64,000 nt of DNA. Source: Ignavibacteriota bacterium. GTDB lineage: Bacteria > Bacteroidota > Ignavibacteria > UBA10030. This document shows, one piece after another, positions 14,640 to 36,418 of the stretch. The notes beneath the pieces are model-generated. The model ran no database searches, was not told the DNA's origin, and was given only the letters and a program-made list of their open reading frames with translations. Within the stretch, counting starts at the first letter, position 1. Each line of letters begins with the position of its first letter. Location of the stretch: assembly GCA_963727825.1 (NCBI GenBank), contig CAVSHO010000011.1, positions 64,001 to 128,000 of the forward strand. Reading direction: 5' to 3'. A program made the translations under genes and the position numbers.

Positions 14640-14691
14640 CCGGTAATCTTGCCTACCTGCCGTCTTTTGGACGGGAGCGCCTCAGTTAAGT
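14640..14691 (-). mobile_element. Half attC (R''/L'') downstream of the beta-lactamase cassette, with a palindrome inside L''
   Basis: Minus strand ACTTAAC-TGAGGC-GCTC[CCGTCCAAAAGACGGCAGGTAGGC]AAGATTACC. Confidence 0.6.
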
Positions 14692-14733
14692 GTTTTTGGT
14701 AATAATCTTTTGCAAGTATCGTTGTCTTGTATT

Positions 14734-15579
14734 TTATCGGGTGTTATGTTCTTTGTTCCAGTCATTTAGAACCTTAATCATATGAGGAAGCAATTCTATT
14801 CCTCCTTCTTTACCGTGACCAGGAATTACAATGCGACAATCTTGAAATCTATTCATTACTTTTTCAACAGAAACTGGCCATTCAGCCATATTCGCATATC
14901 CGATAAAACCGGGGTTATTATGCTCCAACCCTTTTATCATACAGCCTCCAAACAGAATCTTTCGCTTATGAAAATAAACAACCGTGTTATCTATTGTGTG
15001 AGATTCTCCCGGAAAGTATACTTCAAAAACCTCGTCTCCAAATTTCAATTCTAAGCCTTCTTTGATAGGAAAAGTTTTATTTGGCGGCATCAAATTTAGC
15101 TCCTTGTAAGAATTGAAGTAACGCTTATTCTCACTAGAAGAAACTGAATTCAAAATGACCTTTTTTAATTCTACACCCTTTTCTTTTATAAGTTTCACTG
15201 TTAAATCAGGACCATATACCGGGATGTTCTTGGAAAACAAAACTTCATCGCCTCCAAGGTTATCCTGATGAAAACCAGTAACAATTGCCATTAATTTAAG
15301 CGACCCAAAACTCTTTTCAATCCAGTGCAGTAACGAGTCAGTACCGGTTCTTTCGCAAGGTGTGTTAATAAGTAATCCTTGCGAGTCAGGCAAAAGAATA
15401 AACATTCCATTAGAACCCCAGGGAAAATAATGAGTAAATATATAGACACTATCTTGAATTTTAGTATAATACAAATCCTCACTTATCTTGATTTGATTCT
15501 TTTTGGGGTCAGATTGGCAATAACTATTTACTCCATACAGCAATACGATAAGGAGAATAAGAATTTTATTCTTTCGCAA
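14734..15579 (-). CDS. Subclass B1 metallo-beta-lactamase with an atypical G116-x-H118-x-D120 motif (cassette)
   Basis: Signal peptide; VTGFHQDNLGG, PGESHTIDNTVVY, LFGGCMIK and VIPGHG motifs. Confidence 0.85.
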   Translation of the reverse strand: MRKNKILILLIVLLYGVNSYCQSDPKKNQIKISEDLYYTKIQDSVYIFTHYFPWGSNGMFILLPDSQGLLINTPCERTGTDSLLHWIEKSFGSLKLMAIVTGFHQDNLGGDEVLFSKNIPVYGPDLTVKLIKEKGVELKKVILNSVSSSENKRYFNSYKELNLMPPNKTFPIKEGLELKFGDEVFEVYFPGESHTIDNTVVYFHKRKILFGGCMIKGLEHNNPGFIGYANMAEWPVSVEKVMNRFQDCRIVIPGHGKEGGIELLPHMIKVLNDWNKEHNTR

Positions 15580-15645
15580 GTTGAGTCCTTTTATAATTTA
15601 TACCTGTTTGTCATATTTATAATAATTGCTAACCCTAGTAAAAAC

Positions 15646-15879
15646 GCCTAACGAATCGGCGCTAAGTCCCGATTCGACAGATTTGATGTTTTCTAATCAA
15701 ATCGTGGTCGAATCGCGGATCCCGCTTTGCGGGATCTAAAATTTTTACCACGTTGAAAACTTTCAAATTATTGAAAACGAAATAAGTTCCACGTAGAAAG
15801 TTTTATTATTTGTACCAGACCTTTACTCGCAATGAATTTTGCGCTAAGCTATTGTGTCAGATAGAGCGACTAGTTAGGT
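15646..15879 (-). mobile_element. attC site with palindromic insertions
   Basis: + strand GCCTAAC..GCTAAG at the left end and GTCAGATAGAGC..GTTAGGT at the right end. Confidence 0.8.
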
Positions 15880-15897
15880 TACGGGGTGATATCTGTT

Positions 15898-16473
15898 TTA
15901 AAAAATAAACGGTATTAATGCCGAAACACGCCGTGAATATGTTGCATACGTTTCCCCGAATTGTGCTCGCATCAATTTTTCCTCAAGCCTCAATTTGTAG
16001 AATAGCACAGCGAATACTAATACGACAGCAACTAATCCACGCCACTTACCGATTGCGACTGCTGTACCAAATAATGCAAATAAAAGTCCTGTATAAATCG
16101 GATGACGTACAAAAGCATACGGTCCACTTGTCACCAACTGATGATCTTGCTTAATTGTAACAGCCTGGCTCCAATTAGTTCCTAAATGATTTCGTGCCCA
16201 GATAGAAAATAATAGACCGTTCGCTGTAAAAATCACACCAATCCAAAAGCTAGTAAAACCCGAAGGGACAAAGCGCTCATCAAGAATATCAAATGGAATA
16301 TTTTGTAAGACGAGCAATACTATTGCAGAAATCATCGCAATGAGCCGTACGATACGTGATTGCGCAGATTCGCGTACCTGTTCCGTTTGCTTGACATTAT
16401 TTGCCTTTATCCACCAATAGATTTGATAAGCTAACCAGAGTATTACAATTAGAGAATAGTAAATTATCTTCAT
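15898..16473 (-). CDS. Isoprenylcysteine carboxylmethyltransferase (ICMT/Ste14) family membrane protein (cassette)
   Basis: HQLVTSGPYAFVRHPIYTG and EEKLMRAQFGETYATY motifs. Start moved to 16473 because the ORF-track start lies within the attC. Confidence 0.9.
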   Translation of the reverse strand: MKIIYYSLIVILWLAYQIYWWIKANNVKQTEQVRESAQSRIVRLIAMISAIVLLVLQNIPFDILDERFVPSGFTSFWIGVIFTANGLLFSIWARNHLGTNWSQAVTIKQDHQLVTSGPYAFVRHPIYTGLLFALFGTAVAIGKWRGLVAVVLVFAVLFYKLRLEEKLMRAQFGETYATYSRRVSALIPFIF

Positions 16474-16487
16474 TGCTTTTTCCCGAG

Positions 16488-16650
16488 CCCTAACGGTTGG
16501 CAACTAAGCTGCCGCGTTGATAACTTTCAAATTGTATTAAACGAACCAAGTTCATTCACTTCACTAAACCTTTGAATGTAATGCAAAATGCACCCACGCC
16601 TGCCTGCCGGCAGGCAGGCTCGTTTGGTCAGGTTGAGCCGATGGTTAGGC
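16488..16650 (-). mobile_element. attC site (cleanest copy)
   Basis: Minus strand GCCTAAC-CATCG-GCTCAACC-TGACC...GGCA-GCTTAGT-TGCCAACC-GTTAGGG gives R''-L''...L'-R'. Confidence 0.9.
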
Positions 16651-16660
16651 AATATTAATT

Positions 16661-17506
16661 TTACAATAATACTCCAAACCCGACGGAAAGCGTTGTGTAC
16701 GTGACATTAATATTGATGTTATTGCCGCTAGCTGAACCGCCAAATGACTTATATAACCACTCAATGAATATTTTATTGATTTCTAATCTTAGACCACCGG
16801 CGATATATAAACCACCGCTCAAATTGTATGGACCGCTATAAAATGAATCTCCATTGAATATTACATCATAACCAACATTTGCGATAATAATCGGGATGAC
16901 TTTTTCTTCTTGACTTGTTAGTTTAATTTTTACGACCTCATAAAGAGGAACATAATTGAATTTACCGCCTCCTCTTACATCTAGTCCTCGAGGATTGAGA
17001 TACATAATACCAAAAGCATAATTAAACACATTATCATTTATTTCCCCATACTCAAGCGCGAAAGATATTCCAGTCATTACATCTATAGAGCCGGATTGGC
17101 CCATAGCACTCGCTTTGTTACTTCCCGCTAAGTCAGCGCATACCTTTAGGGATACTCTTGCTGCAGATGTTTCCTTGGTTTTTGATGGAGATATATTATT
17201 AATCGGTTGAACAGAATAAATCATTGATTTATTTATTGTTATAAATCCAAGATTAGATTGATATGTCGCAGTAGAATCATTTGCTGAAATAAATTCTCCT
17301 TCAAAAGAATTTCCATTTAAAAGCTTAACTAGAATCATTTGCTTTGCTTGAAGAGAATCCTTTTTTTGTATAGATATAGTTTCTGAAGAATCTTTCTTTG
17401 ACATATCACTATAGTGTAAATAGTTATTAGCGGTATCAATTTGAGCAGAAGTTAATTGACAAACCATCAATAACAATCCTACAAACAACGTAATTCCTTT
17501 CATCAT
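16661..17506 (-). CDS. Hypothetical exported protein, probable C-terminal outer-membrane beta-barrel (cassette)
   Basis: Signal peptide; alternating beta-strand pattern ending in TTLSVGFGVLL. Confidence 0.65.
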   Translation of the reverse strand: MMKGITLFVGLLLMVCQLTSAQIDTANNYLHYSDMSKKDSSETISIQKKDSLQAKQMILVKLLNGNSFEGEFISANDSTATYQSNLGFITINKSMIYSVQPINNISPSKTKETSAARVSLKVCADLAGSNKASAMGQSGSIDVMTGISFALEYGEINDNVFNYAFGIMYLNPRGLDVRGGGKFNYVPLYEVVKIKLTSQEEKVIPIIIANVGYDVIFNGDSFYSGPYNLSGGLYIAGGLRLEINKIFIEWLYKSFGGSASGNNININVTYTTLSVGFGVLL

Positions 17507-17536
17507 CTCCTCCAATGAATTGATTTAATTAATGTT

Positions 17537-17734
17537 GCCTAACGAATGGCAACTAAGCTGCCGCGTTGAATAGTTTCGTGATGCACCCAAGGAAACAAGT
17601 TCACGCTACCGATAGAATTATTAAACATCAAACCTCTAAACGCAATGTTGATTGCTCCCACGCCTGCCTGCCGGCAGGCAGGCTCATTCGGTCAGCTTGT
17701 CCGAGGGACTCCTTCTGAGAGCCGCAGGTTAGAA
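17537..17734 (-). mobile_element. attC site, L'' interrupted by a palindrome
   Basis: GCCTAAC..ACTAAGCTGCCGCG ... GGTCAGCTTG[TCCGAGGGACTCCTTCTGAG]AGCCGCAG-GTTAGAA. Confidence 0.88.
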
Positions 17735-17759
17735 CACACGCTGTAGGTCTATTATTATT

Positions 17760-18596
17760 TTAATCAATGCTATAATCTCCAGGTTGAGGCAATTTATTAC
17801 GTAGCTTCCAGAATATAACCGCAATTACTATTGAGAAAACACATAATCCAAGACCCATTTCCGTGAGGAAATAACTTTTGCCTCCTTTTTCGATTAGGAA
17901 TTGATCAAATACATTTTGAATAAAGAAATTATGACTCGCATGATAAAATAATCCTACCCACAAACTTCCTGATTTTATCCTCAACCAAGTCAACATAAAG
18001 CTAATTGAAACCAATGATATTGTACTAATTACTATTTTAAAAATAGAAAAACCACCTCCATAATTGGTCATTATCATTAAGGGAATATGCCATATTATCC
18101 AAATAGCACCAATTACAAATGATGTTGTTGTCATATTGGTTAGTTTATATAATCTTGGGGTAAGGAAACCTCGCCATCCAACTTCTTCTCCAAAAGAACC
18201 AATAGCTCTTAATAAAAGTCCAATAATGCAGAAAAGAAGAAAATCCACGCTTATAGGTAAGTTAGAACCTAATCCAATTTTGAAATGCTCTTTGACACTC
18301 CCGATTTTGGTTATCCATGCAAAACCATATATAACAATACCATAAATAATTGGTATTAAAAGAGAAAGAAACAAATACTTACCTTTTCCCAATTTCCATC
18401 CTAACTTGTTTATTTTCCGATCAGATATTAGCCTTGTGATTAAAGCGGCTAAGAAAGGGCTATAAACCAGGAGCAATGTAACTGCACTGTCTTCAACGTT
18501 TGGTCCAGTACTTTGAGAAATTAGGATATAACTTAATCCACTAAAGATTATTAATAAAGTTAAAAAAATAAATATTTCCTTTTTCGTTTTTTCCAT
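17760..18596 (-). CDS. CPBP family intramembrane glutamic endopeptidase (CAAX/Abi, cassette)
   Basis: GEEVGWRGFL, WIIWHIP and FYHASHN motifs. Confidence 0.92.
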   Translation of the reverse strand: MEKTKKEIFIFLTLLIIFSGLSYILISQSTGPNVEDSAVTLLLVYSPFLAALITRLISDRKINKLGWKLGKGKYLFLSLLIPIIYGIVIYGFAWITKIGSVKEHFKIGLGSNLPISVDFLLFCIIGLLLRAIGSFGEEVGWRGFLTPRLYKLTNMTTTSFVIGAIWIIWHIPLMIMTNYGGGFSIFKIVISTISLVSISFMLTWLRIKSGSLWVGLFYHASHNFFIQNVFDQFLIEKGGKSYFLTEMGLGLCVFSIVIAVIFWKLRNKLPQPGDYSID

Positions 18597-18688
18597 TATT
18601 TCTCCATAAGACGATTTGGATGTCCTAAGTACAAGATACTTTTCATCTTACAAATAACTTTGTAATGGCACCAAAATTTATTCGTCTG

Positions 18689-18864
18689 TTCTAACGAACG
18701 GGCACTAAGCTGACGCATTGATAACTTTCAAATTATACTAAACGAAACAAGATCATTGAACATTGAACACTCGCACCCCGATAAATCGGGGCGCTTCGGG
18801 AAAGTATTATTTACTTGTCCGAAGGACCCCTACGGGGACTCTTTCCTTTTTAAAATGGTTAGCT
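18689..18864 (-). mobile_element. attC site (variant subfamily with an A-rich R''-proximal segment)
   Basis: TTCTAAC..ACTAAGCTGACGC ... GTTAGCT, with two palindromic insertions. Confidence 0.8.
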
Positions 18865-18923
18865 TGCAAACAGATGACGTATTTTGTGATTTAATTATTA
18901 ACTTATCTTTGTAAAGCTAGTGT

Positions 18924-19521
18924 TTATGAAACCTTTTGTGTTAAAAAGAACCTGAAAAAGCCACCATACCATTGTCTTCTCGCCAGTATTTTAAGTCCAG
19001 CTTGTTGAATTCCCATCTCGAACTCTGCCCACTCAAACATTTTGTGCGGCTCTTCTATGAGCATGACTCCATCAGAAACAAGTACCTGGTACAGCCTCTT
19101 CCAAAGTCTTTCGCCAAAGAGGAATATGATGTAGAACACCGAAATCAAAAACTGCATTGCAACTAGAATCTGGTGCATTCATAGCGTTTGCATCACCTAC
19201 CATAAAATCAACATTAAGTCCACATCTTTTTGCAAGTTCAATTTGTTCTGGCATAATATCAAATGCAATGACTTGCGATGGTTTCAATTCCTTAATAATT
19301 AACTCAGTGCCAAATCCAGAGCCGCAGCCCATGTCCATTATAACTTTTCCGGACAAATTAATTTTATGCATTTGAAGCATTTTAAAAAATAACGGAAATT
19401 CCTGATGTTTCCATCGCCATCGTCTAAGAGGGTTATTCATTGCTAAGAATTCAAATCTACCTAAACGAATACTTTCTTTTGAATCTTCCATACCATATTT
19501 CCACTTTATATTGTTTTTCAT
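18924..19521 (-). pseudogene. Class I SAM-dependent methyltransferase, frameshifted near 19095 (cassette)
   Basis: MDMGCGSGFG and VFDFGVLHHIP in one frame; the continuation LYQVLVSDGVMLIEEP is in another frame. Confidence 0.8.
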
Positions 19522-19672
19522 TAAAATGGTTCGCTAAAAATTAATGAAGAACAATATAATCGCCCATTATTTATCGGCAAAGCTCGAGATATTGTCGGTA
19601 AATATCGAATTATTTGCAGATTCTTTAAATGGCCACTTTCAAAAATTAAAAGAACAATGGTTTTTACTGTGC

Positions 19673-19853
19673 ACCTAACGGACAGGCGCTCCGCCCAAAA
19701 GATGGCGGACAAGTAAGCTGCTGCGTTGAATAATTTTCAAGTTACACTCAACAAACTGAGTTCATTGAACACTCGCATCTGAAAAACTATATTTACTTGT
19801 TGAGCTTGCGAAATCCCGCTTGCGGGGACTTTTTCCTTTTTAAATGGTTAGGT
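19673..19853 (-). mobile_element. attC site (variant subfamily), L' interrupted by a palindrome
   Basis: ACCTAAC..GCT[CCGCCCAAAAGATGGCGGACAAGT]AAGCTGCTGCG ... GTTAGGT. Confidence 0.82.
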
Positions 19854-19883
19854 AGCACAAATAATTATTCATTTATGTCCGGG

Positions 19884-20681: not shown

Positions 20682-20692
20682 TATGTTCTCTT

Positions 20693-21226: not shown

Positions 21227-21261
21227 ACTAAAATGTAATTAGCTAAATGCAATTGGGCACG

Positions 21262-21330
21262 GCCTATCCGATCGGAACTAAGTGAAACATGGCGCTTTGC
21301 GACACTGCGGCGCTGATAATTTTCCAATTT
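21262..21330 (-). mobile_element. Strongly degenerate attC remnant
   Basis: GCCTATC-CGATCGGA-ACTAAG ... CTGCGGCGCTGATAATTTT resembles the shared R'/L' and adjacent sequence. Confidence 0.4.
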
Positions 21331-21483
21331 TACAGCTGTCGCGCGTGACATCTAACCTAAATTCATAGGCTAAACTTTCTTTGCACGGTTAATTGCACCC
21401 GCGTTTTTCCCGTTTGCTTGAATACTTCGATATTACCAAAAAGGAACCAATCCATAATTACTTTCCTTAAAGTTTTATCATCT

Positions 21484-24857: not shown

Positions 24858-25029
24858 CTCTAACAGAATGCGGATAAGCCACAGGTTAGGCATTTCGAAA
24901 AATATATTCTTGTTAGATGTGACTACTGCAATTTTTAATCAATATATCTGCTTTTATAAATATGTCTACCAACGCACTATTTCCGTCAGCTAGCTCGCCA
25001 TCTTATTAGGCAGGAGGGCCTCGTTAGGC
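24858..25029 (-). mobile_element. attC site, L'' interrupted by a palindrome
   Basis: Minus strand GCCTAAC-GAGGC-CCTC[CTGCCTAATAAGATGGCGAGC]TAGCTGACGG ... GGCTTATCCGCATTCT-GTTAGAG. Confidence 0.78.
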
Positions 25030-25034
25030 GCGCT

Positions 25035-25677: not shown

Positions 25678-25775
25678 CCCTAACGAATCGGCGCTAAGTC
25701 CCGATTCGAAAGATTTGATGTTTTCCAATCAAATCGCGGATCCCGCTTTGCGGGATCTAATATTTTTCGACACTG
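25678..25775 (-). mobile_element. Half attC (R'/L'), near-identical to 15646-15750
   Basis: CCCTAACGAATCGGCGCTAAGTCCCGATTCGA...GATCCCGCTTTGCGGGATCTAA is shared with the 15646 site. Confidence 0.8.
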
Positions 25776-27002: not shown

Positions 27003-27746
27003 ATGTATAGAAATATTATTATACAAAGCACCAATAATGATTTATTTCACAATCTTGCATTTGAAGAATATGCAATGGAAAACCTGGCTGGAGAATATAA
27101 AATTCTTTTTTTATGGCAGTCTGCCGGGTCAATTGTAATTGGAAAGAATCAGAATCCTTTTAAGGAATGCAATGTTGACAATGTGCTGGAACATAAAATG
27201 CAACTTGGAAGGCGGGTTTCGGGAGGAGGAACTGTATATCAAGATCTTGGAAATATGAACTTTTCGTTTATCTCAGGAAAAGAGTTATTCAATACAGATG
27301 AAAATTTTTCCTTAATTATCGGGACTTTGAAGAAATGGAATATAGACCCGTATATTTCTTCTAATAACGATATTATGGTATTTGATAAAAAAATTTCTGG
27401 AAATGCATTCTGTCATAAAAAAAACAGTTCTATGCACCACGGAACTCTTCTTGTTGAATGCGACCTTATCAAGCTCGAGTATTTCTTAAAAAAACCTGAG
27501 TATAATATTATTGGTAATTCGGTATCATCAAAAAGAAGCTGTACTGCAAATATAAAATCCTTCAATAGAAATATAAATATTTATAATATAAAAAAAGAAA
27601 TAATAAAGGAATATGATAATAACTGCAGAGCATTTAATGATTATGATCTAATTGATGAAAATGTTTTTCCAATATATTATAGAAAAATGGAAAGCATCAA
27701 GTGGATATTTGGTTTTACTGAAAATATTGCTGTAATAAAAACCTGA
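27003..27746 (+). CDS. lplA: Lipoate-protein ligase A (catalytic domain)
   Basis: NLAFEEY, VIGKNQNP, RRVSGGGTVYQDLGN, KISGNA and HHGTLL motifs. Confidence 0.9.
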   Translation: MYRNIIIQSTNNDLFHNLAFEEYAMENLAGEYKILFLWQSAGSIVIGKNQNPFKECNVDNVLEHKMQLGRRVSGGGTVYQDLGNMNFSFISGKELFNTDENFSLIIGTLKKWNIDPYISSNNDIMVFDKKISGNAFCHKKNSSMHHGTLLVECDLIKLEYFLKKPEYNIIGNSVSSKRSCTANIKSFNRNINIYNIKKEIIKEYDNNCRAFNDYDLIDENVFPIYYRKMESIKWIFGFTENIAVIKT

Positions 27747-27905
27747 AAAAAATTCCATATAGGCTCGTTTAAATTAAATGCATAATACAGTGTAAAGTTA
27801 ATAGCGAGAAAACTCACCCTGCCCTTTTATAATAAGGAGTTAAGTGAGGTGAGTATTTTAGAGGAGCTCTTAAAAATTCGAATTATTTTTTATCTGGAGT
27901 AAAAT

Positions 27906-28352
27906 ATGACAAAAGAAAAAATCATGATGAAAATTGATGAATTATTGGATAATTCAAAATGCGCAGTATTGTCAACAGTCTCTTCCGATGGAAAGCCACG
28001 CTTAAGGTGGATGTGTCCCACAATATTTCCCGATATGGGGCAAATGATCTATGCGGTATCTTCCGCCGATTTTCATAAAATCGAGGATTTAAAAATAAAT
28101 CCCTCTGCATCATGGATGTTCCAGACAAAGGAACTTAATGAAATAATAAATGTTTCAGGCAAGATATATATAATAGACAACCCCTCAATGAAATCAATGA
28201 TAATCGAAAAAATTGGAAATAGGCTTCATGCATTCTGGAAATTGAAGAAGGATTCATCCGACTTTATCGCGTTGGAAACAGTCATCGAAGACGCTGTTTA
28301 CTTCAATCCGATGAAGGGGGAAAAAGAGATTATAAAATTTCTTGAAAAATGA
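27906..28352 (+). CDS. Pyridoxamine 5'-phosphate oxidase-like FMN-binding split-barrel protein
   Basis: AVLSTVSSDGKPRLRWM and KIEDLKINP motifs. Confidence 0.8.
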   Translation: MTKEKIMMKIDELLDNSKCAVLSTVSSDGKPRLRWMCPTIFPDMGQMIYAVSSADFHKIEDLKINPSASWMFQTKELNEIINVSGKIYIIDNPSMKSMIIEKIGNRLHAFWKLKKDSSDFIALETVIEDAVYFNPMKGEKEIIKFLEK

Positions 28353-29347
28353 TCATGGAAAATCACATTAAAAAATATGATGTAAAAAAAATTGATAGAA
28401 ATTTTTTAATTGAACTCCTGGAAAAAATGTGCTTGATAAGGAGATTCGAAGAGACATCTGCAAAAATGTACGGTTTAAGAAAGATCGGGGGATTCCTTCA
28501 CTTATATATTGGTCAGGAAGCGGTTGCGGTAGGCGCTGTAAGTGCAATTGATCTAAAAAAAGACGCTGTTTTCACTGCCTACCGCGATCACGGTTATGCC
28601 ATAGCATGCGGTTCAAACATAAATGCCCTGATGGCAGAACTCTTCGGCAAGGCATCAGGAATTTCAAAGGGTAAGGGCGGATCAATGCATTTTTTTGACA
28701 TTAAAAACCATATGTATGGTGGGAACGGCATTGTTGGGGCACATATTCCTTTAGCAGCAGGTTATGCACTTAAAATTTCATATATGAATGAAGACGGAGT
28801 TGTTTTATGCATTTTCGGAGACGGAGCTATTCACCAGGGTACATTCCATGAAACCCTTAATATGGCGCGGCTCTGGGATCTTCCTGTTATTTTCATATGT
28901 GAAAACAATCAGTACGGCATGGGAACATTTTATAAAAGGATCTCAAGCATCGATGATTTCACAATTATGGCAAAATCATATAATATGATAGGATTATCTA
29001 TTGATGGTATGAATGTTCTTACTGTTTATTCTGAATTAATTGATATTATACAAAAAGTGAGAAAAGAAAAAAATCCTGTTTTTCTGGAAATAAAAACATA
29101 TAGATATAAAGGCCATTCCATAAGCGATCCAGGGCAGTACAGAACCAAAAAGGAGCTGGAAGCATATAAGGAGCTTGATCCAATTCTGATCCTTAAAAAT
29201 GATCTTATGAAAAATAATATTATAGACGAAGCTGGATACGAGGAAATTGACAAAAAATGCAGAGAAAGGGTTGATGAATCCGTCAAGTTTGCCGAGAATG
29301 CTGATGAACCAGATCTGGGTGCTATCTATGAAGATATTCTTGCTTAG
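28349..29347 (+). CDS. pdhA: Pyruvate dehydrogenase E1 alpha
   Basis: KIGGFLHLYIGQEA, YRDHG, GKGGSMH, FGDGA and TYRYKGHS motifs. Confidence 0.95.
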   Translation: MIMENHIKKYDVKKIDRNFLIELLEKMCLIRRFEETSAKMYGLRKIGGFLHLYIGQEAVAVGAVSAIDLKKDAVFTAYRDHGYAIACGSNINALMAELFGKASGISKGKGGSMHFFDIKNHMYGGNGIVGAHIPLAAGYALKISYMNEDGVVLCIFGDGAIHQGTFHETLNMARLWDLPVIFICENNQYGMGTFYKRISSIDDFTIMAKSYNMIGLSIDGMNVLTVYSELIDIIQKVRKEKNPVFLEIKTYRYKGHSISDPGQYRTKKELEAYKELDPILILKNDLMKNNIIDEAGYEEIDKKCRERVDESVKFAENADEPDLGAIYEDILA

Positions 29348-29359
29348 AAGGAGGGCTGA

Positions 29360-30340
29360 GTGGCTATAATAACAATGAGAGAAGCAATAAGGCAGGCAAT
29401 CGATGAAGAAATGGCGTTTGATCAAAATGTGATTTTAATAGGCGAGGAAGTTGCCTTATATCAGGGTGCATATAAGGTTTCAAAAGGGCTTTATGAGAAG
29501 TATGGCGGAAAAAGAGTCATAGACACGCCCATCACTGAAGAAGGATTTGCAGGTATAGGAATCGGAGCTGCAATCGCTGGATTAAGACCAATCGTGGAAT
29601 TCATGACCTTCAATTTTTCTATTCAGGCACTTGATCAGATCATAAACAATGCTTCAAAAATGTTTCATATGTCGGGCGGTCAAATAAATGTTCCGATCGT
29701 GTTCAGAGGACCGAATGGTCCTGCAGAATATCTTGCGAGCCAGCATTCTCAAGCGCTGCAGACGCTCTTTGCTCATATTCCGGGATTAAAAGTAGTAAGC
29801 CCGTCAACTCCATACGACGCAAAGGGACTTTTAAAAAGTTCCATCAGGGACAATAATCCTGTTATTTTTTTGGAAAGCGAGCTCATGTATGCGTGGGAAG
29901 GCGAAGTACCCGGCAACGAATATTTAATTGAAATTGGAAAAGCCGAAATAAAAAAAGAAGGCAAAGATGTATCAATTATAACTTACGGAAGACCAATTAA
30001 GCTGGTGAATCAGGCATCTGAAATATTAACTAAAGAAGGAATTGATGTCGAAATAATCGATGTCCGCACAATAAGGCCTCTTGATGAAAAAAAGATTTAT
30101 AAATCAATTGCAAAAACTAATAGGTGCGTAATAGTCGACGAATCATGGCCTTTCTGCAGTGTGGCTTCATATATCGGATATCTTGTAAGTAGAAATTCAT
30201 TCGATTATCTGGACTGCCCTGTTGAGATTGTCACCTCGGAAGATGTGCCCATGCCTTACAGTCATAAACTTGAACTTGCTGTTCAGCCTTCAGTAGAAAA
30301 AATTGTTTACGCTGTAAAAAATGTTCTCTATAAATCGTAG
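29360..30340 (+). CDS. pdhB: Pyruvate dehydrogenase E1 beta
   Basis: GEEVALYQGAYKVSKGL, DTPITEEGF and QHSQ motifs. Confidence 0.95.
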   Translation: MAIITMREAIRQAIDEEMAFDQNVILIGEEVALYQGAYKVSKGLYEKYGGKRVIDTPITEEGFAGIGIGAAIAGLRPIVEFMTFNFSIQALDQIINNASKMFHMSGGQINVPIVFRGPNGPAEYLASQHSQALQTLFAHIPGLKVVSPSTPYDAKGLLKSSIRDNNPVIFLESELMYAWEGEVPGNEYLIEIGKAEIKKEGKDVSIITYGRPIKLVNQASEILTKEGIDVEIIDVRTIRPLDEKKIYKSIAKTNRCVIVDESWPFCSVASYIGYLVSRNSFDYLDCPVEIVTSEDVPMPYSHKLELAVQPSVEKIVYAVKNVLYKS

Positions 30341-30350
30341 GAGGAATGAA

Positions 30351-31568
30351 GTGGCTGATTTTATAAGAATGATCGCTTTATCCCCGACAATGGAAGAAGG
30401 AACGATAATCAAATGGAATGCCATTGTCGGCGAGAAGATTACGGCCGGCAGAGTAATCTGCGAAGTCGAGACCGATAAAGCTTCTATGGAATACGAAGCT
30501 ACCGATGATGGATTTCTACTTGAGATACTTGTAAAGGAAGGGGAAATTGCAAAAATTGGAGATTCGATTGCAATTATCGGCGAAAAGGATGACGACATAA
30601 CAGAATTCAGGAAAAAAGCTTCGATCAGTTTATCTGAAGAAAAGGAAATCAAGGTTGAAGAGAAGAAAGCTGAAAAGAAGCAAGATGAGAAAGAGCCAGT
30701 TTTAGTAAACAGAATAAAAATATCACCGCTTGCAAAAAGTCTGGCTTCAAAAAACAATATAAACATAAATAGTATTTCAGGTTCTGGAACGGGTGGACGG
30801 ATAATAAAGGAAGATGTTGAAAAATTATTGTCCGGCAAAACGGGAACAATCGCGGCCAAATATGAAAAAGGAATAGTCAGGCCTGAGAATAAAGAAATAG
30901 AAATTACCAATAAGAAAAGAGTGATAGCAGAAAAGCTTTCAAAATCAAAATTCAGTGCACCCCATTTCTATGTAAAAATGAAAGTCATATGTGAAAACTT
31001 GCTAAGGACAAGGGAAAAGCTCAACCTTGAGGAGAAAATAAATAAGCTTTCATTAAACGCATTTCTCATAAAATTAGCAGCGGAATCGATTAAAAAACAT
31101 CCAATTATTAACTCCTCATGGATGGGTGAAAAAATTCTCCAGCACGGTTCGATTGATATAGGCATTGCAGTGGCTCTAGAAGACGGTCTTATTGTTCCAA
31201 TAGTCAAAGACTGCGGAAATAAGGGAATAAGTCAGATCGATTCTGAATTGAAGATATTGGTTGATAAGGCAAGAAATAATACGATAACACTTGATGAAAT
31301 CACAGGTGCAACTTTTACTATCAGCAATCTCGGTTCTTATGATGTTGATGAATTCACGGCGATAATAAATCCGCCGGGTTCTGCAATATTAGCTGTCGGC
31401 AGAGCATCGAGGGAAGTTATTGTAAACGAAAATTCCCAAATGGAAATTAAAAGGGTAATTAATTTTACATTGTCATGTGATCACAGGATAATAGACGGAG
31501 CAAGAGCTGCAATGTTCTTGAAGACATTCAAGGAGAATATAGAATTTCCTATAAATAGTCTTTTATGA
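30351..31568 (+). CDS. pdhC: Dihydrolipoamide acetyltransferase E2
   Basis: Lipoyl motif EVETDKA, E3-binding GSGTGGRI and catalytic CDHRIIDGA. GTG start after GAGGA. Confidence 0.93.
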   Translation: MADFIRMIALSPTMEEGTIIKWNAIVGEKITAGRVICEVETDKASMEYEATDDGFLLEILVKEGEIAKIGDSIAIIGEKDDDITEFRKKASISLSEEKEIKVEEKKAEKKQDEKEPVLVNRIKISPLAKSLASKNNININSISGSGTGGRIIKEDVEKLLSGKTGTIAAKYEKGIVRPENKEIEITNKKRVIAEKLSKSKFSAPHFYVKMKVICENLLRTREKLNLEEKINKLSLNAFLIKLAAESIKKHPIINSSWMGEKILQHGSIDIGIAVALEDGLIVPIVKDCGNKGISQIDSELKILVDKARNNTITLDEITGATFTISNLGSYDVDEFTAIINPPGSAILAVGRASREVIVNENSQMEIKRVINFTLSCDHRIIDGARAAMFLKTFKENIEFPINSLL

Positions 31569-31613
31569 ACTATAACCTTTAATGAATATCAAGTGCTTAT
31601 TATAGGAATTCCT

Positions 31614-31991: not shown

Positions 31992-32158
31992 TTGCGAAAA
32001 ATTGTATCGTTTTCGTGCTTTCAACGTTTGTTTTTTGAGTCGTTCCCTATATGTAATAATCTCACAATGCCTTCTATAATATACATCGGCTGGGGTGATA
32101 CTCCAAACCTCTGATCGCATTATTTAACGCAGTAGAATATTTAATTACCAAATACAAA

Positions 32159-33070
32159 TTAATGGGTTGACGTATCACAAACTTCATTTTCTCTCTCAGT
32201 TTCAAGTGTACTGTGGTGAATATTTTTATGCTCAAATTCGTGTCTCAGTTTGTATTTTATTTGCTGTTCCTGATCCACTGTTGTCTCTTGTGCCAACACT
32301 AAATGAGCTGTTAAAGCATTTTCTGTTGTACTCATTGCCCATATGTGAATATGGTGCAAATCTTTCACCCCAGTAACTTTCATTGCGGTCGTTTTAATGT
32401 CGTCGAGGCGGATGCTTCTTGGAACTCCATCAAGTGATAAACGCAGGCTATCTTTAAGTAGTCGCCAAGTGCTGAAAAGGACAACAACCGACATTATAAT
32501 ACTCAAAACGCTGTCAATCCGAAACCAATTTGTGAAGAAAATCACGATGCCACCGATAACAAGCCCAAGGGAAATAATGGCATCGTTCACTAAGTGAAGG
32601 TATGCGCTCTTGATATTGATGTCTTTGTCCTTATCACGAAGGAAGATAAATGCTGTTCCCGAGTTAATGATAATACCTATTCCTGCTACTATCGCAATCG
32701 TTACTCCCGGGAGTGGTTCGGGATTTAAGAAACGGTGTACTGCTTCAGAAACAATTACACCGATTGAAACTAATAACAGCATTGCGTTAAAAAATGCAAC
32801 AAGGATGGATGTTTTGCCATAACCGTAAGTGAACTCACTACTTGATTTTCTTTTCAAGAGTCGAAAGGCCAGTAACGATAGCCCCAATGCTCCCACATCT
32901 GCAAGATTGTGTCCTGCATCCGAAAGCAATGAAAGTGAATGAATGAAAAGCCCGACGATGGCTTCGATTACTACAAACAATAAATTCAGGGAAATGCCAA
33001 TAATAAAAGCAGTGTTCACGTTTGTGAAGATGTTGGAAAGGCTATGTTGATATATGTGATTATGTTCCAT
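32159..33070 (-). CDS. czcD: Cation diffusion facilitator (Zn/Co/Cd) transporter
   Basis: SLLSDAGHNLAD, NIKSAYLHLVND and DLHHIHIW motifs. Confidence 0.88.
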   Translation of the reverse strand: MEHNHIYQHSLSNIFTNVNTAFIIGISLNLLFVVIEAIVGLFIHSLSLLSDAGHNLADVGALGLSLLAFRLLKRKSSSEFTYGYGKTSILVAFFNAMLLLVSIGVIVSEAVHRFLNPEPLPGVTIAIVAGIGIIINSGTAFIFLRDKDKDINIKSAYLHLVNDAIISLGLVIGGIVIFFTNWFRIDSVLSIIMSVVVLFSTWRLLKDSLRLSLDGVPRSIRLDDIKTTAMKVTGVKDLHHIHIWAMSTTENALTAHLVLAQETTVDQEQQIKYKLRHEFEHKNIHHSTLETERENEVCDTSTH

Positions 33071-33135
33071 CTTTTAATGTTGTGTTGTTGAAAAAATAAT
33101 TACTTAATTAATATGCATCATTAGCATTTCGTGTG

Positions 33136-33382
33136 TTCAAACAAACCGCGCTCCGCCCAATGATAAAAAAAAGCGGATAAAAAGCTGCGGCGTTGAAAAG
33201 TTCCGTAATGTACCCAAAGAAACATGTTCACGCTACCAGCCAAATTATTAAGCACCAGACCTCTACGCTCAATGTTGGTTACACTCACGCTTGCCTGCCG
33301 ACAGGCAGGCTCATTCCGTCAGCTTGTCCGAAGGACTCCTTCGGCAAAGCCATCCCTTCGGGAGGAGAGCCGCTGATTAGAC
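33136..33382 (-). mobile_element. Degenerate attC with palindromes in both L boxes
   Basis: TTCAAAC..GCT[CCGCCC..GCGGATAAA]AAGCTGCGGCG ... GTCAGCTTG[..]AGAGCCGCTG-ATTAGAC. Both R cores are mutated. Confidence 0.75.
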
Positions 33383-33404
33383 AGCAATCCATTGGGATCA
33401 GCCA

Positions 33405-33794
33405 TTACGCTACCAGCGTTGCAATCCACCATGTGTTGCCAGCAGGATCCTTGACGCCTCCTCGGCGATTGGGTTCCTCTTCTCTACGCTCCGGGGCCTG
33501 GACCGAGACTCCACCAGCCTCAAGTGCTCGTCGATAACAATCGTCGACATTCTCGACGTAGACATGCAAGTGTGCTGGAACAGGCGACCAATTCGTTCCC
33601 GCCTCGCCAATCATCACGACAGTATCGCCAATCTGCACTTCAGCGTGTGCGATAGAACCGTTTGGCATATCGAAGTGTTGCAATTCGCGAGCTCCAAAAG
33701 TCTTTTTAAGGAAGTCGATAATTTGCTGTGCGCCTGTCACGATCAAGTACGGCGAGACAGTGTTGTACCCTTTGGGTTTGAACGAAGCTTCCAT
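33405..33794 (-). CDS. VOC/glyoxalase (PhnB-like) protein (cassette)
   Basis: VSPYLIV, HAEVQIGDTVVM and VKDPAGNTWWIAT motifs. Confidence 0.9.
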   Translation of the reverse strand: MEASFKPKGYNTVSPYLIVTGAQQIIDFLKKTFGARELQHFDMPNGSIAHAEVQIGDTVVMIGEAGTNWSPVPAHLHVYVENVDDCYRRALEAGGVSVQAPERREEEPNRRGGVKDPAGNTWWIATLVA

Positions 33795-33825
33795 ACACGT
33801 CTCCAAGAATAATTAAATTGTTGTA

Positions 33826-33963
33826 GCCTAACGGGACCTCGCTAAGCTGCGGTACTAATAATTTTCAATATACACAAAACGAGACAAGTTCATTGAACAA
33901 TTGCTTCCCGATAAATCGGGAGTATTTTATTTACTGACTCTTTCCTTTTTAAACTGGTTATGT
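33826..33963 (-). mobile_element. attC site (variant subfamily)
   Basis: GCCTAAC..GCTAAGCTGCGG ... GTTATGT. Confidence 0.82.
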
Positions 33964-33973
33964 TGCAATTGCT

Positions 33974-36160
33974 TTATCTTAGTAACACAAGTTTCTTCGT
34001 CTCATTAAATGAGCCAGCTTGCAGGCGATAAAAATAAACTCCGCTGGACATTGTTGTTGCATTCAATTGACGCGAATAATTTCCTGCCGACATTTCTTCT
34101 GAGACAATTGTTGTCACTTCTCTTCCCAACATATCAAATACTTTTAGTGATACAAACGATTTAGATGGAAGACTAAAGGAAATAGTTGTTGATGGGTTGA
34201 ACGGATTGGGATAATTTTGTGAAAGAACAAATTGTCTAGGTACTTCATTTTTCTCCTGTGGCACTGATACTTCATTATCTGAAAGAGGCCGTTTCCATAC
34301 ACCGCCAGCAACTGTGCCTACATAAATATTACTACCACTTATAACAAGTGTGTTTATACTGTCATTCATTAAACCGTTATTGAATTGAGTCCACGTAGTA
34401 CCATCGTTTATTGAACTAAACACACCGCCATCATAAGTACCTGCAAAGAGAGTGTCGTTCCTAACTGCAAAGGATGAGATAGTTTTATATGTTAAACCAT
34501 TATTGATAGCAGTCCAATTTGTTCCATCATTTGACGAAAGGAATACACCGGCATTACTAGTCCCCGCAAATAGATATGAGTTGTTTACTGCAAGACACCA
34601 TATACTTGTGCTGATTAATCCGCTGTCTATTTTCGCCCAGTTAGTTCCATTATTTATTGAAAAATATACCCCATACTTATTGTTGGATGCATAAATCTTA
34701 TTGTCCTTTACCACAATAGAATAAAATGTAGAAGTTGTATCTAAACCATTGTTGACTGTATTCCAACTGTCACCGTTGTCTGTGGATAGTTTTATCCCAT
34801 CATAAGAGCCTCCACCAGCAAAAATATTTGAGCCACCTGTCCCATTAGAGTTATTAGCAAGAGATAAGACGGATGAGCTCATGCTCATCGTATTCCAAAG
34901 TGGTTTCCAACTAGTACCATTATCTGTTGAACAAAATCCTCCACCTCCATCAGTCCCGATAAATATTTTGTTATCATTAGTAATAGAGATAGCTGTTATA
35001 GGGAAAAGAAAAGAATTGTCATTTATTTGCGTCCAATTCGTACCGCTATTAGTAGAAAGGAATAACCCACCATTTCCTGCACCTGCATAAAGATTCGTTC
35101 CATTTGCTGCCAAAACATTAATATATTGATGAGTTAATCCCGTATTTCTTTGGGCCCAGTTCGTACCATTATTCGTAGAAATAAATACGCCTCCCTCAGT
35201 TCCAGCGAATATGTTTGAGTTGCCAACTCCATTTGAACTTACGAACAAAGCATTAACCTCTAAATTCAGTAAGCCCGTATTTTTTTGTGACCAACTTTTT
35301 CCGCTATCGGCTGAAAAATAAATACCCGTCTGATTAGGATAAAGATTACTAGTACCAACAATCAGATTAATTCCTCCTGAACCATTTGGAGAAAAAGCAG
35401 CTGAATTAGATTGTGTGTTACCATTGGGAGTAATATTTTCCCAACTTATTCCACCATCACTTGAATAAATCACACCATCACCTTCAAAAGCAAGTATATT
35501 GTTTCCACTGACACTTAATTTGATGAAGTCTGAACCGCTCCAATCATAGCCGCCCGTAGGCGAATTAAGAATTTGCCAGCTTACACCCTTGTCAGTTGAA
35601 ATATATATTCCGCCCCCATTATATGTTGCGGCATAAATATTTGTATCGCTAACAGTTAGATATCTAATCCTCTTAGTGTTTAAACCGTTATTGACATTTG
35701 TCCAAGTTGCACCATTATTAGCAGAAAGAAACACACCCCTTTGATCTGTCCCCGCAAAAAGGTTTGTTCCCATAGTGACAAGTGTCATTATATGGTTACT
35801 TTCAAAATTATTGTCAACTCGTGTCCAGTTTGCTCCGTTATCGGTTGAAGAAAATATTAGGGCATAATTTCCATCATAATAATATCCTAATACAAAAAGA
35901 TTAGAGCCACTGACAGCAATTGAAAAAATATCATTAAAAGAGCCTATTCCGTTGTTAATCGCCTTCCATGTTGTACCATTATTAGTTGACAAAAAAACAC
36001 CGTCTTGATATGTCCCTGCGTATAGATTTGAACCGCTTTGAGCAAAACATTTTATATTGCTACTGGTAGGACCGGTAGTTTGTATCCATTGTGCAAAAGA
36101 TGGGATAGTGTTTGTGAAAATACATCCAATAAGAAGCAAAAACTGAGGTAACTTTTTCAT
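33974..36160 (-). CDS. T9SS-secreted BNR/Asp-box beta-propeller protein (cassette)
   Basis: Signal peptide, many STxNGxxW repeats and a C-terminal LSQNYPNPFNP...GVYFYRL domain. Confidence 0.9.
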   Translation of the reverse strand: MKKLPQFLLLIGCIFTNTIPSFAQWIQTTGPTSSNIKCFAQSGSNLYAGTYQDGVFLSTNNGTTWKAINNGIGSFNDIFSIAVSGSNLFVLGYYYDGNYALIFSSTDNGANWTRVDNNFESNHIMTLVTMGTNLFAGTDQRGVFLSANNGATWTNVNNGLNTKRIRYLTVSDTNIYAATYNGGGIYISTDKGVSWQILNSPTGGYDWSGSDFIKLSVSGNNILAFEGDGVIYSSDGGISWENITPNGNTQSNSAAFSPNGSGGINLIVGTSNLYPNQTGIYFSADSGKSWSQKNTGLLNLEVNALFVSSNGVGNSNIFAGTEGGVFISTNNGTNWAQRNTGLTHQYINVLAANGTNLYAGAGNGGLFLSTNSGTNWTQINDNSFLFPITAISITNDNKIFIGTDGGGGFCSTDNGTSWKPLWNTMSMSSSVLSLANNSNGTGGSNIFAGGGSYDGIKLSTDNGDSWNTVNNGLDTTSTFYSIVVKDNKIYASNNKYGVYFSINNGTNWAKIDSGLISTSIWCLAVNNSYLFAGTSNAGVFLSSNDGTNWTAINNGLTYKTISSFAVRNDTLFAGTYDGGVFSSINDGTTWTQFNNGLMNDSINTLVISGSNIYVGTVAGGVWKRPLSDNEVSVPQEKNEVPRQFVLSQNYPNPFNPSTTISFSLPSKSFVSLKVFDMLGREVTTIVSEEMSAGNYSRQLNATTMSSGVYFYRLQAGSFNETKKLVLLR

Positions 36161-36199
36161 GTAAACAAATCCTTATATAAGTTGTGGAGAGCAATTACA

Positions 36200-36418
36200 A
36201 CATAACGATGGCGCTAAGTTGCGGCGTTGATAAATTACGTGTTTTGCATCCAACAAGACAAGTTCCACGTAGATTCTTTCCAATTTCACCAAACTTCTGT
36301 TCGCCAAGTAATTTAGCACTCACGCCTGCCTGCCAGTAGGCAGGCTCATTCCGTTAGCCTGTGCGAAGGACCCCTTCTGGCAAAGCCATCCCTTCGGGAG
36401 GAGAGCCGCAGGTTAGGT
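36200..36418 (-). mobile_element. attC site (first of the array), L'' interrupted by nested palindromes
   Basis: ACATAAC..GCTAAGTTGCGGCG ... AGAGCCGCAG-GTTAGGT. Confidence 0.85.

Follow-up and report, generated by a model that had tools for sequence, protein, structure and literature searches.

The extrahelical bases of attC sites let the integron integrase pick the correct strand. IS1111-attC insertion sequences (ISs) and group IIC-attC introns are kilobase-sized and encode their own enzyme. The small dispersed repeats (SDRs) of Nostoc, as Elhai et al. are said to have reported in 2008, are ~21–27 nt long, are thought to be mobile, have hairpin potential and show nesting, and they reportedly reach hundreds of copies in some genomes. 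Repetitive extragenic palindromes (REPs) and REP doublets forming hairpins (REPINs) are mobilized by REP-associated tyrosine transposases (RAYTs) of the Y1 HUH type, according to passages of Di Nocera et al. (2013, PMC3733652) and Bertels and Rainey (2011, PMC3116915), and a passage of the former describes some REP families as "inserted within small palindromes". Mitochondrial hairpin elements include the double-hairpin elements of Allomyces, the GC clusters of yeast and the repetitive hairpin elements (RHEs) of sponges, and for yeast GC42 a target dinucleotide with duplication is reported (sections of PMC2800124 and PMC4478555). HUH transposons are described as having a tetranucleotide beside a subterminal palindrome on single-stranded DNA (ssDNA) and no target duplication, and IS91 as using 5′-CTTG beside its oriIS palindromes (sections of 10.1101/2025.01.24.634351). 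Here, we analyzed a 64,000-nt stretch of an Ignavibacteriota genome (the window, C11:64001–128000), in which short GC-rich hairpin modules interrupt the L boxes of attC sites. Literature searches, which did not cover supplementary attC catalogues, found no description of hairpin inserts at this position.

The inserts are probably copies of several families of miniature hairpin modules, resembling REPs, SDRs and mitochondrial hairpins, that land in unpaired spots of folding DNA. The modules are dispersed, nested, oriented, position-exact and genus-wide, and they are not inherited with the attC backbone. The source genome (G000; 3.12 Mb, 14 contigs, 41% GC) has an integron integrase gene, intI, at C11:29893–30834 (+; TIGR02249, 447.9 bits). 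To the left of intI lie 22 near-identical attC sites within C11:1–27255, and 4 further sites of this main array are found at C12:73704–75781. An nhmmer search of the genome with a profile built from 22 canonical sites gave 51 attC sites or fragments at E < 0.01 and 61 at E ≤ 10. The window holds a row of decayed attCs on the right-hand side of intI (C11:75–100 kb), with their cassettes on the minus strand, and small clusters are also present on C1 and C9 and at C11:149–152 kb. On the plus strand, the canonical site reads CCTAAC-GGAyc-GGCGCTAAGCTG ... CAGCTT-G-AGCGCC-T-GGTTAGG, with RYYYAAC on the 5′ arm and two unpaired bases on the other arm, a G and then a T 6 nt on. Passages of two papers (PMC5027507, PMC3053210) define the attC bottom strand by its T-N6-G extrahelical bases; because these bases sit opposite the RYYYAAC arm, the plus strand is the bottom strand. 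The predicted fold of the canonical site shows the bulged G. The intI gene, the 51 profile sites, the bulged-G fold and the base spacing identify the sites as integron attCs.

All seven inserts reported in the initial annotation were read directly in the sequence, within 1–3 bases of the coordinates it gave, and the empty L'' box at 16631–16638 with which it compared them was correct. Its claim that they are insertions holds, as paralogous empty and filled sites both exist. In L'', the insertion point is exactly the bond joining the extrahelical G to AGCGCC (CAGCTT-G^AGCGCC-T-GGTTAGG, the caret marking this point). In L′, GGCGC and TAAGCTG flank the inserts. This point reads CAGCTTA^GCGCC on the top strand and mirrors that of L''; the L′ hairpin, opposite in orientation to that in L'', has the same orientation relative to the local strand. 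Four insertion points were found in attC, namely L'' G^A, L′ GGCGC^TAAG, L′ TAAG^CTG (used in the window at 21283–21304, 15667 and 25698) and CACG^CTCATT at the junction of the stem with the variable terminal structure (VTS). The stem/VTS junction holds the palindrome CCTGCCTGCCGGCAGGCAGG in four sites of the window and a GCCCGCCG...CGGCGGGC hairpin at 5 sites of the main array; it is a third hot spot of attC and is filled no less often than L.

At least two unrelated hairpin types, some of them nested, had been proposed; at least four module families were found, and nesting was confirmed. The tagged family consists of a tag (CTTG, TTTA or CCTG), a GC stem of 6–7 bp (e.g. TCCGCC/GGCGGA) and a T-rich loop of 8–9 nt. 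The doublet family (20–22 nt) has the form T-NNS-RAA-SNN-A then T-NNS-TTY-SNN-A, as in TCC-GAA-GGA C TCC-TTC-GGA, and the stems of the mini-hairpins vary with pairing kept (CCC/GGG, CAC/GTG, GCC/GGC and GGC/GCC). The third family is the perfect 20-nt palindrome CCTGCCTGCCGGCAGGCAGG, and longer composite modules make up a fourth type. The tagged element occurs in a single orientation, mostly 3′ of (C/G)TTR (CAGCTTG, CAGCTTA, GGTTA, AGTTA or GTCTTG), with exceptions such as AACA, in a REP loop, and CAAA, also in a loop. Its core was defined as YCCGCC-N6-10-GGCGGR with perfect stems. Among the 25 perfect cores of the source genome, 16 have TTTA or CTTG on the side of the T-rich loop, and the other side has no recurrent 4-mer; counted by tag, TTTA occurs 10 times, CTTG 6 times and CCTG once. 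The tagged pattern gave 16 matches in this genome, as compared with 1 for the control.

The description of the seven inserts as hairpins stands for some of them only. When folded as DNA with 200 shuffles per stretch (Table 1), the inserts at 14652–14675, 33327–33367 and 19690–19713 fold well, those at 17700–17719, 24994–25014 and 36362–36403 are at shuffle level and that at 33152–33181 is weak. Because of this shuffle-level folding, three to four of the seven count as hairpins only by homology to intact copies (such as those at C12:73028 and 33327). Full-length minimum free energy (MFE) folds of filled attCs were too noisy for a clean three-way junction. Besides the seven, the window contains the palindromes and the modules at 21283–21304, ~15667–15747, ~25698–25768, 18818–18838 and ~19808–19838. 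Rfam at gathering thresholds found only 3 tRNAs in the window, and the modules are covered by no known RNA family.

The survey covered a genus set of 16 genomes, including the source genome, and a wider set of 41 genomes. The tagged pattern was found in all 15 other genus genomes and in 30 of the 41 genomes searched, source genome included, with 0–2 matches of the reversed control per genome. The strict pattern of an empty L'' box (CAGCTTGAGCSSCNGGTTAG) matched 376 sites in 13 of the 16 genus genomes, and its control matched none. The strict pattern of a filled one (CAGCTTG-N18-45-AGCSSCNGGTTAG) matched 50 sites in 12 of the 16 genomes (11.7%), and the same pattern reversed, used as the control, matched none; with zero control matches, chance was rejected as the source of the filled sites. 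In all 50 sites the insert lies between CAGCTTG and AGCSSC, and a hand tally gave 17 tagged inserts, 23 doublets, 7 of a 38-nt type and 3 others. Some doublet inserts contain further nested doublets and reach 64 nt. In each of the 17 tagged L'' inserts, the tag is on the 5′ side of the bottom strand after the CTTG of attC itself. Since the sequence there reads CAGCTTG-CTTG-CCCGCC... or CAGCTTG-TTTA-CCCGCC..., with the attC's own CTTG first, the tag belongs to the element. Doublets stand directly after CTTG. Tagged hairpins in L′ were found at 9 sites in 5 of the 16 genomes, all 9 in reverse orientation and with no control match. Reading of the flanks in clusters fetched from relatives gave 7 more tagged L′ copies; in these clusters, the automated classifier assigned only 6 copies to L'' and 1 to the stem/VTS junction.

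The initial annotation had inferred insertion into folded attC DNA; in that form this is not borne out, as the hairpins are not specific to attC. In the source genome, 23 of the 25 perfect tagged cores lie outside attC, as do 5 of 6 doublet loci, each of these in the loop of another hairpin. The modules are not integron-specific, because they are part of genome-wide hairpin families that nest in other hairpins. Across the genus, the abundance of the tagged family is unrelated to the number of attCs (rho −0.09), and the genome with most tagged copies (G012, 24 copies) is without a strict canonical attC match. The tagged cores are enriched in attC: the attC intervals make up 0.49% of the source genome and contain 2 of the 25 perfect cores, a 16-fold enrichment (binomial p 0.0066).

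Outside attC, the cores are placed asymmetrically within other hairpins, against the 3′ arm. The hosts of the various modules are loops of REPs beside RAYT genes, loops of tRNA fragments beside small GIY-YIG genes, and terminator-like hairpins. The repeat GGAGAGGGTTA^GGGTGAGG (GGAGAGGG-TTA-GGGTGAGG) occurs in about 6 empty copies; a 24-nt element fills the copy at C7:121743, and those at C1:239536 and C9:93886 have a 49-nt filling with a further hairpin nested in its loop. Similarly, the repeat CGGTCAGGAsTTA^CGTCCTGACCG is filled at C9:281039, in the loop of CGGTCAGGAC-GTAAG-TCCTGACCG, and empty in 5 copies. The loops of the REPs that flank RAYT-like genes at C7:141844 and C8:59099 carry the tagged element. 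One tagged element was also found following the CTTG in a second tagged element's loop (fetched region L035:6181), and doublets are nested in doublets and in tagged loops. Outside attC the palindrome CCTGCCTGCCGGCAGGCAGG was found 5 times, one of them in the D-arm of a duplicated 5′ fragment of tRNA-Leu. A composite repeat of 173 nt at C9:161909–162082 (L043, positions 410–582) contains a tagged hairpin and has a 74% identical copy at C12:48423–48556; the 173-nt repeat is missing from the otherwise collinear loci of G005, G006 and G011.

These non-attC copies bear on an alternative that we regard as unlikely: the modules may be lineage-specific variants of attC, each of which arose once or a few times by any kind of mutation and spread only by attC duplication and short-patch conversion at the conserved L-box flanks, with no transposition. 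The junction is identical in all 50 filled L'' boxes, the L-box flanks (CCGTCAGCTTG and AGCGCCTGGTTAGG) are nearly invariant across hundreds of attCs, and the module type clusters by genome, with doublets in G009 and G013, tagged hairpins in G005 and G015 and the 38-nt type in G006, all of which would be expected of such variants. The palindrome and doublet common to three sites of the window point the same way. Against it, hairpins outside attC whose flanks are unrelated (loops of REPs and of tRNA fragments, and terminator-like hairpins) contain the same families, at least four unrelated families use the same phosphodiester bond, and the tagged family is commonest in G012, which has no canonical attC match.

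Shared descent was assessed on 20 regions fetched from 8 relatives (132 attC matches); because the regions were chosen around filled sites, this sample is biased toward filled attCs. A tree of the attC backbones between the L boxes included 119 sites with both anchors, those of the source genome among them; of the 119, 70 were empty, 21 had a doublet, 15 a tagged hairpin, 9 the 38-nt type and 4 an insert of another kind. The filled or empty state changed 33 times on this tree, as compared with 38.3 ± 2.7 in 300 shuffles (minimum 31), and the module type changed 38 times versus 46.1 ± 1.6 (minimum 40), so that some signal of descent is present, in favor of the attC-variant explanation. The descent signal is thus weak, and there are many separate acquisitions. 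Within genomes, attCs with the same module have a backbone identity equal to their identity to empty sites; for the doublets of G009, it is 0.66 within the group, 0.653 to empties and 0.647 among empties. The segments between consecutive attCs gave no non-self blastn match among 7 in L040, where 7 of 8 attCs are L''-filled, or among 7 in L028, and only two short pieces are shared among the 9 segments of L023. L′ modules, L'' modules and VTS types occur in many combinations. Descent of all filled sites from one or two ancestral attCs, which had been named as evidence against insertion, is not what we observed, because filled attCs have no backbone in common and lie beside cassettes that are unrelated. 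Comparison of four public sequencing runs was uninformative on polymorphism: the best run contains 0.21 of the sampled words, all are short Logan contigs, and the insert at 19690, found in contigs of runs X1 and X2, had no empty allele and no usable joints.

In the source genome, all 26 intI-proximal attCs lack an L'' insert, whereas 10 of the 17 sites that could be read elsewhere have one (Fisher p 1e-5); the distal array end at C12:69–73 kb belongs with the filled sites. Of these 26 proximal attCs, 6 have an insert at the stem/VTS junction. In G006, the 14 strict sites beside intI (C7:248–17974; intI at C7:21893) are all empty, and filled sites are on C8 and C9. In G015, which is one contig with 53 empty and 4 filled L'' boxes, the 5 strict sites nearest to intI (3551836–3564793; intI at 3566721) are empty, and filled sites lie 27 kb off and in distant clusters. 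This distribution fits immobilization of a cassette by an L-box hairpin, and relaxed selection in decaying clusters fits equally well. A passage of PMC3053210 has the extrahelical G contacted in trans by the attacking integrase subunit. According to parts of PMC5027507, some attCs tolerate deletion of single extrahelical bases with little effect, and the VTS is not bound.

The same distribution bears on the proposal that the modules are functional accessory structures kept by selection, such as sites bound by a host or integron-associated protein, or modulators of attC folding and strand choice in a form of domestication, whose position reflects what the integrase tolerates or uses and not insertion. 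The stems covary with pairing kept, the T-rich loops and the tags are conserved across the genus and family, the inserts occur only where the integrase needs no pairing (the extrahelical base and the VTS), and filled attCs whose R boxes are intact adjoin many cassettes unrelated to one another, as such a function would predict. Three to four of the seven copies in the window have decayed so far that they fold no better than shuffles, modules also sit in unrelated places such as pseudo-tRNA loops, and L'' inserts are missing from the 26 intI-proximal attCs, contrary to what an aid to recombination would show; we therefore hold an accessory function to be improbable. As a separate observation, the attC clusters of G015 (C1) are found at about 10 places round the chromosome, with the attC bottom strand on the minus strand below ~2.5 Mb, except at 1405446 (+), and on the plus strand above ~2.8 Mb, which suggests that attC orientation is tied to the replication arms.

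Replication errors at hairpins (template switching, quasi-palindrome correction or flap ligation) could give rise to such inserts as by-products, creating or lengthening palindromes locally. In keeping with this, several modules, namely the 20-nt CCTGCCTGCCGGCAGGCAGG and the 22-nt doublets, are palindromes, perfect or nearly so, and every module sits within DNA that itself folds into a hairpin. Against it, one and the same sequence turns up at unrelated loci and across genomes, local copying would not yield the unpaired tag or the conserved loop, and at the sites read the inserted sequence is no copy of its neighborhood and not derivable from its flanks. An origin in replication errors is thus very hard to credit.

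The initial annotation had suggested a search for HUH/RAYT, GIY-YIG or IS110-family genes flanked by the hairpins. A physical association was found for GIY-YIG genes. Of the 9 Y1_Tnp matches in the source genome, at least 5 are RAYT-like genes bordered by REPs of their own. The hairpins flanking the 9 loci belong to other families; at none of them do the modules serve as the gene's own REPs, and at C7:141844 and C8:59099 they are present only nested in REP loops. The RAYT-like Y1 genes, at least five to seven in number, are at C9:119964, C7:111489, C11:297461, C10:250348, C7:141971, C8:57993 and C9:377932, each with a distinct REP hairpin family (e.g. ACCTTCCGAAGGT and AACCTTGTCAAGGTT), and the genome is unusually rich in separate REP systems. 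Across the 41 related genomes, Y1 and module counts are correlated with rho 0.47, a value confounded by kinship. All 5 IS110-family genes of the source genome lie in the main integron array (C11:4483–24345, outside the window). Four attC right ends are interrupted, three of them in R'' (identical copies, TGG^ATATTACAAAAAAGG; TGG^ATATTAC...; attCs at C11:8272, 19620 and 23654) and the fourth, at C11:4483, with a different junction; none of the four is interrupted in L. The integron integrase was rejected as the inserting enzyme by reasoning, because its cleavage point is in the R box and modules are plentiful in G012, a genome without a canonical attC match.

GIY-YIG domains gave 14 matches in the source genome. 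Two matches in long frames (634 and 300 aa) were excluded and one in an 82-aa frame was not counted, its locus (C1:4299) being used for the tRNA-fragment comparison, which leaves 11 small genes of ~83–130 aa; the one tested matched PF01541 with 64.3 bits. By reading the loci, about 10 of the 11 adjoin a tRNA gene and a duplicated tRNA fragment that carries a module. The module is in the T-loop of the spare fragment at C1:4502, C10:75117, C8:~159650, C11:~154200 and on C13, in the anticodon loop at C7:94857 and C13:67464, and in the D-arm at C9:166633, C9:166979 and C7:94194; the intact tRNA copies beside the GIY-YIG genes are without a module. Most modules, including all of those in the window, have no small GIY-YIG gene nearby. 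At C9:166600–167390 (L078), two tandem units of 346 nt, each a tRNA-Leu 5′ fragment with an 83-aa GIY-YIG open reading frame (ORF), precede an intact tRNA-Leu, and each fragment carries the 20-nt palindrome in its D-arm. The GIY-YIG arrays of relatives are longer, with 14 matches at a period of ~299 nt in G002 and 8 matches in G019.

Here, we propose how the modules may spread. They would land in loops, bulges and helix breaks of DNA already folded as a hairpin. Because attCs fold as single strands with the G bulged, the preferred landing points would be G^A (bottom strand) and CAGCTTA^GCGCC (top strand), with AG^CT in L′ and the stem/VTS junction as further ones, and a tagged module brings its own 4-nt tag (CTTG, TTTA or CCTG) beside the stem. 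A structure-specific nuclease or transposase, for which small GIY-YIG proteins and RAYT-like Y1/HUH proteins are candidates, may move the modules in trans on ssDNA, and short-patch gene conversion between L-box flanks may spread them further among attCs. Where the extrahelical G carries a hairpin, the integrase would be hindered, and L-filled cassettes would then accumulate outside the active array. The best reading is that the attC L boxes are a new preferred target of REP- and SDR-like nesting hairpins. A stronger form, in which a structure-specific activity, possibly of a small GIY-YIG protein, plants 20–26 nt hairpins at unpaired bases including the extrahelical G and thereby fixes cassettes and gives rise to the numerous integrase-less attC clusters of the genus, is a tentative suggestion.

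Several points weigh against movement of the modules as proposed. No enzyme was tied to the modules among the Y1, IS91-type, GIY-YIG and IS110 genes examined. Y1 and module counts are not significantly correlated in the genus (rho 0.32, p 0.22), and G015, with 11 tagged copies and 4 filled L'' boxes, has only a marginal Y1 match (E 7.9e-4). IS91-type Y2 genes (PF04986) are found in 0 of the 16 genus genomes, by a search able to detect them, since 2 of the 41 relatives matched. GIY-YIG genes are present in 41 of 41 genomes, and thus cannot be judged by co-occurrence; their link to the modules may be indirect, the genes creating spare tRNA arms in which inserts are harmless, and GIY-YIG as the inserting enzyme is a lead only. 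Genomes have few copies (tens each), many of them decayed. A generic scan for a tag with any GC hairpin gave 70 matches versus 69 with reversed tags and was rejected as a family definition in favor of the defined cores; the tag is thus meaningful only for defined stem families. No orthologous locus was found to differ by one module alone, the only resolved comparison (C9:161.9 kb) concerning the 173-nt composite, and at L042 the matches are mostly repeats. The backbone tree is short, poorly resolved and built on loci picked around filled sites, and 3 of the 10 filled L'' boxes of the source genome share ancestry (palindrome and doublet in the attCs at 17537, 33135 and 36199). Gene conversion at the conserved L-box flanks could explain much of the spread among attCs. 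It is insufficient as the sole explanation, because at least four unrelated families use one bond and copies occur outside attC.

Table 1 Modules and attC sites in the window (positions in the window; z values from folding as DNA)
Feature	Position	Strand	Flanks, matches and related copies	Folding
attC right-end remnant (CTTG ... AGCGCC TCAGTTAAG)	14648..14690	+	aligned by eye to canonical right end	
L'' insert, CCTA/CCTG-tagged hairpin CCGTC-TTTTG-GACGG	14652..14675	+	CTTG 14648-14651, AGCGCC 14676-14681	14647-14677: -6.6 kcal/mol, z -3.95, 0/200 shuffles as good
attC, long composite L′ module (~15667-15747) between CTAAG and inner stem	15646..15878	+	L'' empty but degenerate (GTCAGATAGAGCGAC); relatives have same module type between TAAG and CTGCGGC	
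attC, empty L'' (CAGGTT-G-AGCCGA)	16489..16650	+	nhmmer E 1.1e-24	z -2.64
Palindrome CCTGCCTGCCGGCAGGCAGG, stem/VTS junction of attC 16489..16650	16599-16618		0 mismatches	
attC with palindrome and 20-nt L'' insert	17537..17735	+	nhmmer E 1.8e-30	
Palindrome CCTGCCTGCCGGCAGGCAGG, attC 17537..17735	17663-17682		0 mismatches	
L'' insert, decayed mini-hairpin doublet TCCGAGGGAC TCCTTCTGAG	17700..17719	+	CAGCTTG 17693-17699, AGCCGC 17720-17725; 2 mismatches to intact copy; fits strict filled pattern	17696-17722: z +0.41
Variant attC, canonical left half, right half ending ACTCTTTCC TTTTTAAAATGGTTAG	18691..18855	+		
Doublet-like module following TTTACTTG, in variant attC 18691..18855	18818-18838			
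L′ insert, tagged hairpin, 24 nt	19690..19713	-	between GGCGC and TAAGCTG; top strand CTTG-TCCGCC-ATCTTTTG-GGCGGA following CAGCTTA, 0 mismatches to family motif	19686-19718: z -1.95
Module TTGAGCTTGCGAAATCCCGCTTGCGGGG following TTTACTTG, same variant attC as 19690 insert	~19808..19838	+	akin to relatives' 38-nt L'' inserts (by eye, G006 and G010 rows)	
22-nt insert TGAAACATGGCGCTTTGCGACA	21283..21304	+	between CTAAG and CTGCGGCG of L′ box; host attC-like site 21262-21421, nhmmer E 0.0011; near-identical insert at C1 contig start	z -0.16; alone, no hairpin
L'' insert, decayed tagged-type hairpin CTCGCC-ATCTTATTA-GGCAGG	24994..25014	+	CAGCTAG 24987-24993, AGGGCC 25015-25020; homologous copy at C1:185328	24988-25016: z +0.57
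attC left half, long L′ module (~25698-25768) of 15667-15747 type	25678..25770	+		
L′ insert, decayed A-expanded tagged hairpin, 30 nt	33152..33181	-	between CGCGC and AAGCTG	33148-33184: z -1.24 (weak)
Palindrome, stem/VTS junction	33290..33309	+	2 mismatches	
L'' insert, 41 nt, doublet TCCGAAGGAC TCCTTCGG	33327..33367	+	CAGCTTG 33320-33326, AGCCGC 33368-33373; second doublet-like piece nested inside (..GGCAAAGCCA TCCCTTCGGGA..)	33323-33368: z -2.87
Module-free variant attC, empty counterpart of 18691-18855 (TATTTACTG^ACTCTTTCC)	33826..33965	+		
Palindrome, stem/VTS junction	36325..36344	+	2 mismatches	
L'' insert, 42 nt, nested, homologous to 33327-33367	36362..36403	+	TAGCCTG 36355-36361, AGCCGC 36404-36409; contains doublet TGGCAAAGCCA TCCCTTCGGGA at 36378-36399	36358-36404: z -0.56

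The sites at 18691–18855, 19674–19860 and 33826–33965 have a canonical R′-L′ half and a right half of the form ACTCTTTCC-TTTTTAAA(A)TGGTTAG, with no complement of L′; a right half resembling this variant type stands alone at C9:462353. A block of plus-strand ORFs (148–415 aa) without attC occupies 27003–31568 of the window, between two groups of decayed attCs. Because this block splits them, the span of the inserts covers at least two attC clusters and not one array.

The sites described here are a natural class of attC with a whole hairpin at the extrahelical base, amounting to ~12% of strict L'' boxes in the genus and concentrated outside integrase-proximal arrays. They offer a ready test of how much extra structure the integrase tolerates, and a possible route to immobile cassettes and integrase-less attC clusters. 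They also place several families of tiny hairpins in a non-cyanobacterial lineage, where these nest, with position and orientation fixed, in loops and bulges of REPs, pseudo-tRNA arms and attC. The movement of REP- and SDR-like micro-elements is thereby made testable, with a target known to the nucleotide (CAGCTTG^AGCGCC) and two candidate protein families.

Compared with the attC-targeting elements, the inserts are far smaller, as the initial annotation had stated: they are 20–42 nt long and contain no ORF, which sets them apart from IS1111-attC elements. Like the inserts, IS1111-attC elements and group IIC-attC introns target folded attC in a fixed orientation. In the IS1111-attC manner, the IS110-family elements of the source genome sit in R'' of other attCs and never in L. 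The IS200/IS605 and IS91 families share with the modules a tetranucleotide with a subterminal hairpin and oriented insertion 3′ of a 4-nt target without target duplication, and they act on ssDNA, as is proposed for the modules. The likeness to IS91 extends to CTTG plus a hairpin and not to the family itself, given that no Y2 gene was found in the 16 genus genomes searched. The palindrome-associated transposable elements (PATEs), which are MITEs (miniature inverted-repeat transposable elements) derived from IS200/IS605, have two distinct subterminal hairpins, left and right, and a guide tetranucleotide that complements the cleavage site; a module has a single hairpin and carries no gene, and its tag repeats the target and does not complement it, unlike in IS200/IS605.

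REPs, bacterial interspersed mosaic elements (BIMEs) and REPIN-RAYT systems resemble the modules as GC-rich hairpins of 20–40 nt with an unpaired tetranucleotide at one end, and both are short palindromes that are dispersed, extragenic and present as several families per genome. They differ in the tag, which is GTAG or CGTC in REPs and YTTR or CCTG in the modules, and in copy number, with ~16–25 module copies per genome and hundreds of REPs. REPINs are inverted doublets, whereas the modules are mostly single units, with one tandem pair seen; REP families flank their cognate RAYT gene, whereas the modules flank none as its own REPs. Insertion in attC L boxes is unreported for REPs. The SDRs of Nostoc and its relatives, by their reported features, match the modules in size, hairpin and nesting; the copy number of the modules is lower, and the SDRs belong to a different phylum, have different sequences and have no link to integrons or to a defined bulge position. 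The mitochondrial hairpin elements are organellar and have no bacterial attC context. Like the modules, they are short, GC-rich single or double hairpins in AT-richer DNA that encode no enzyme; they are nonetheless mobile, as the modules would be, and they lie in tolerant parts of structured genes with conserved stems and variable loops, as the modules do.

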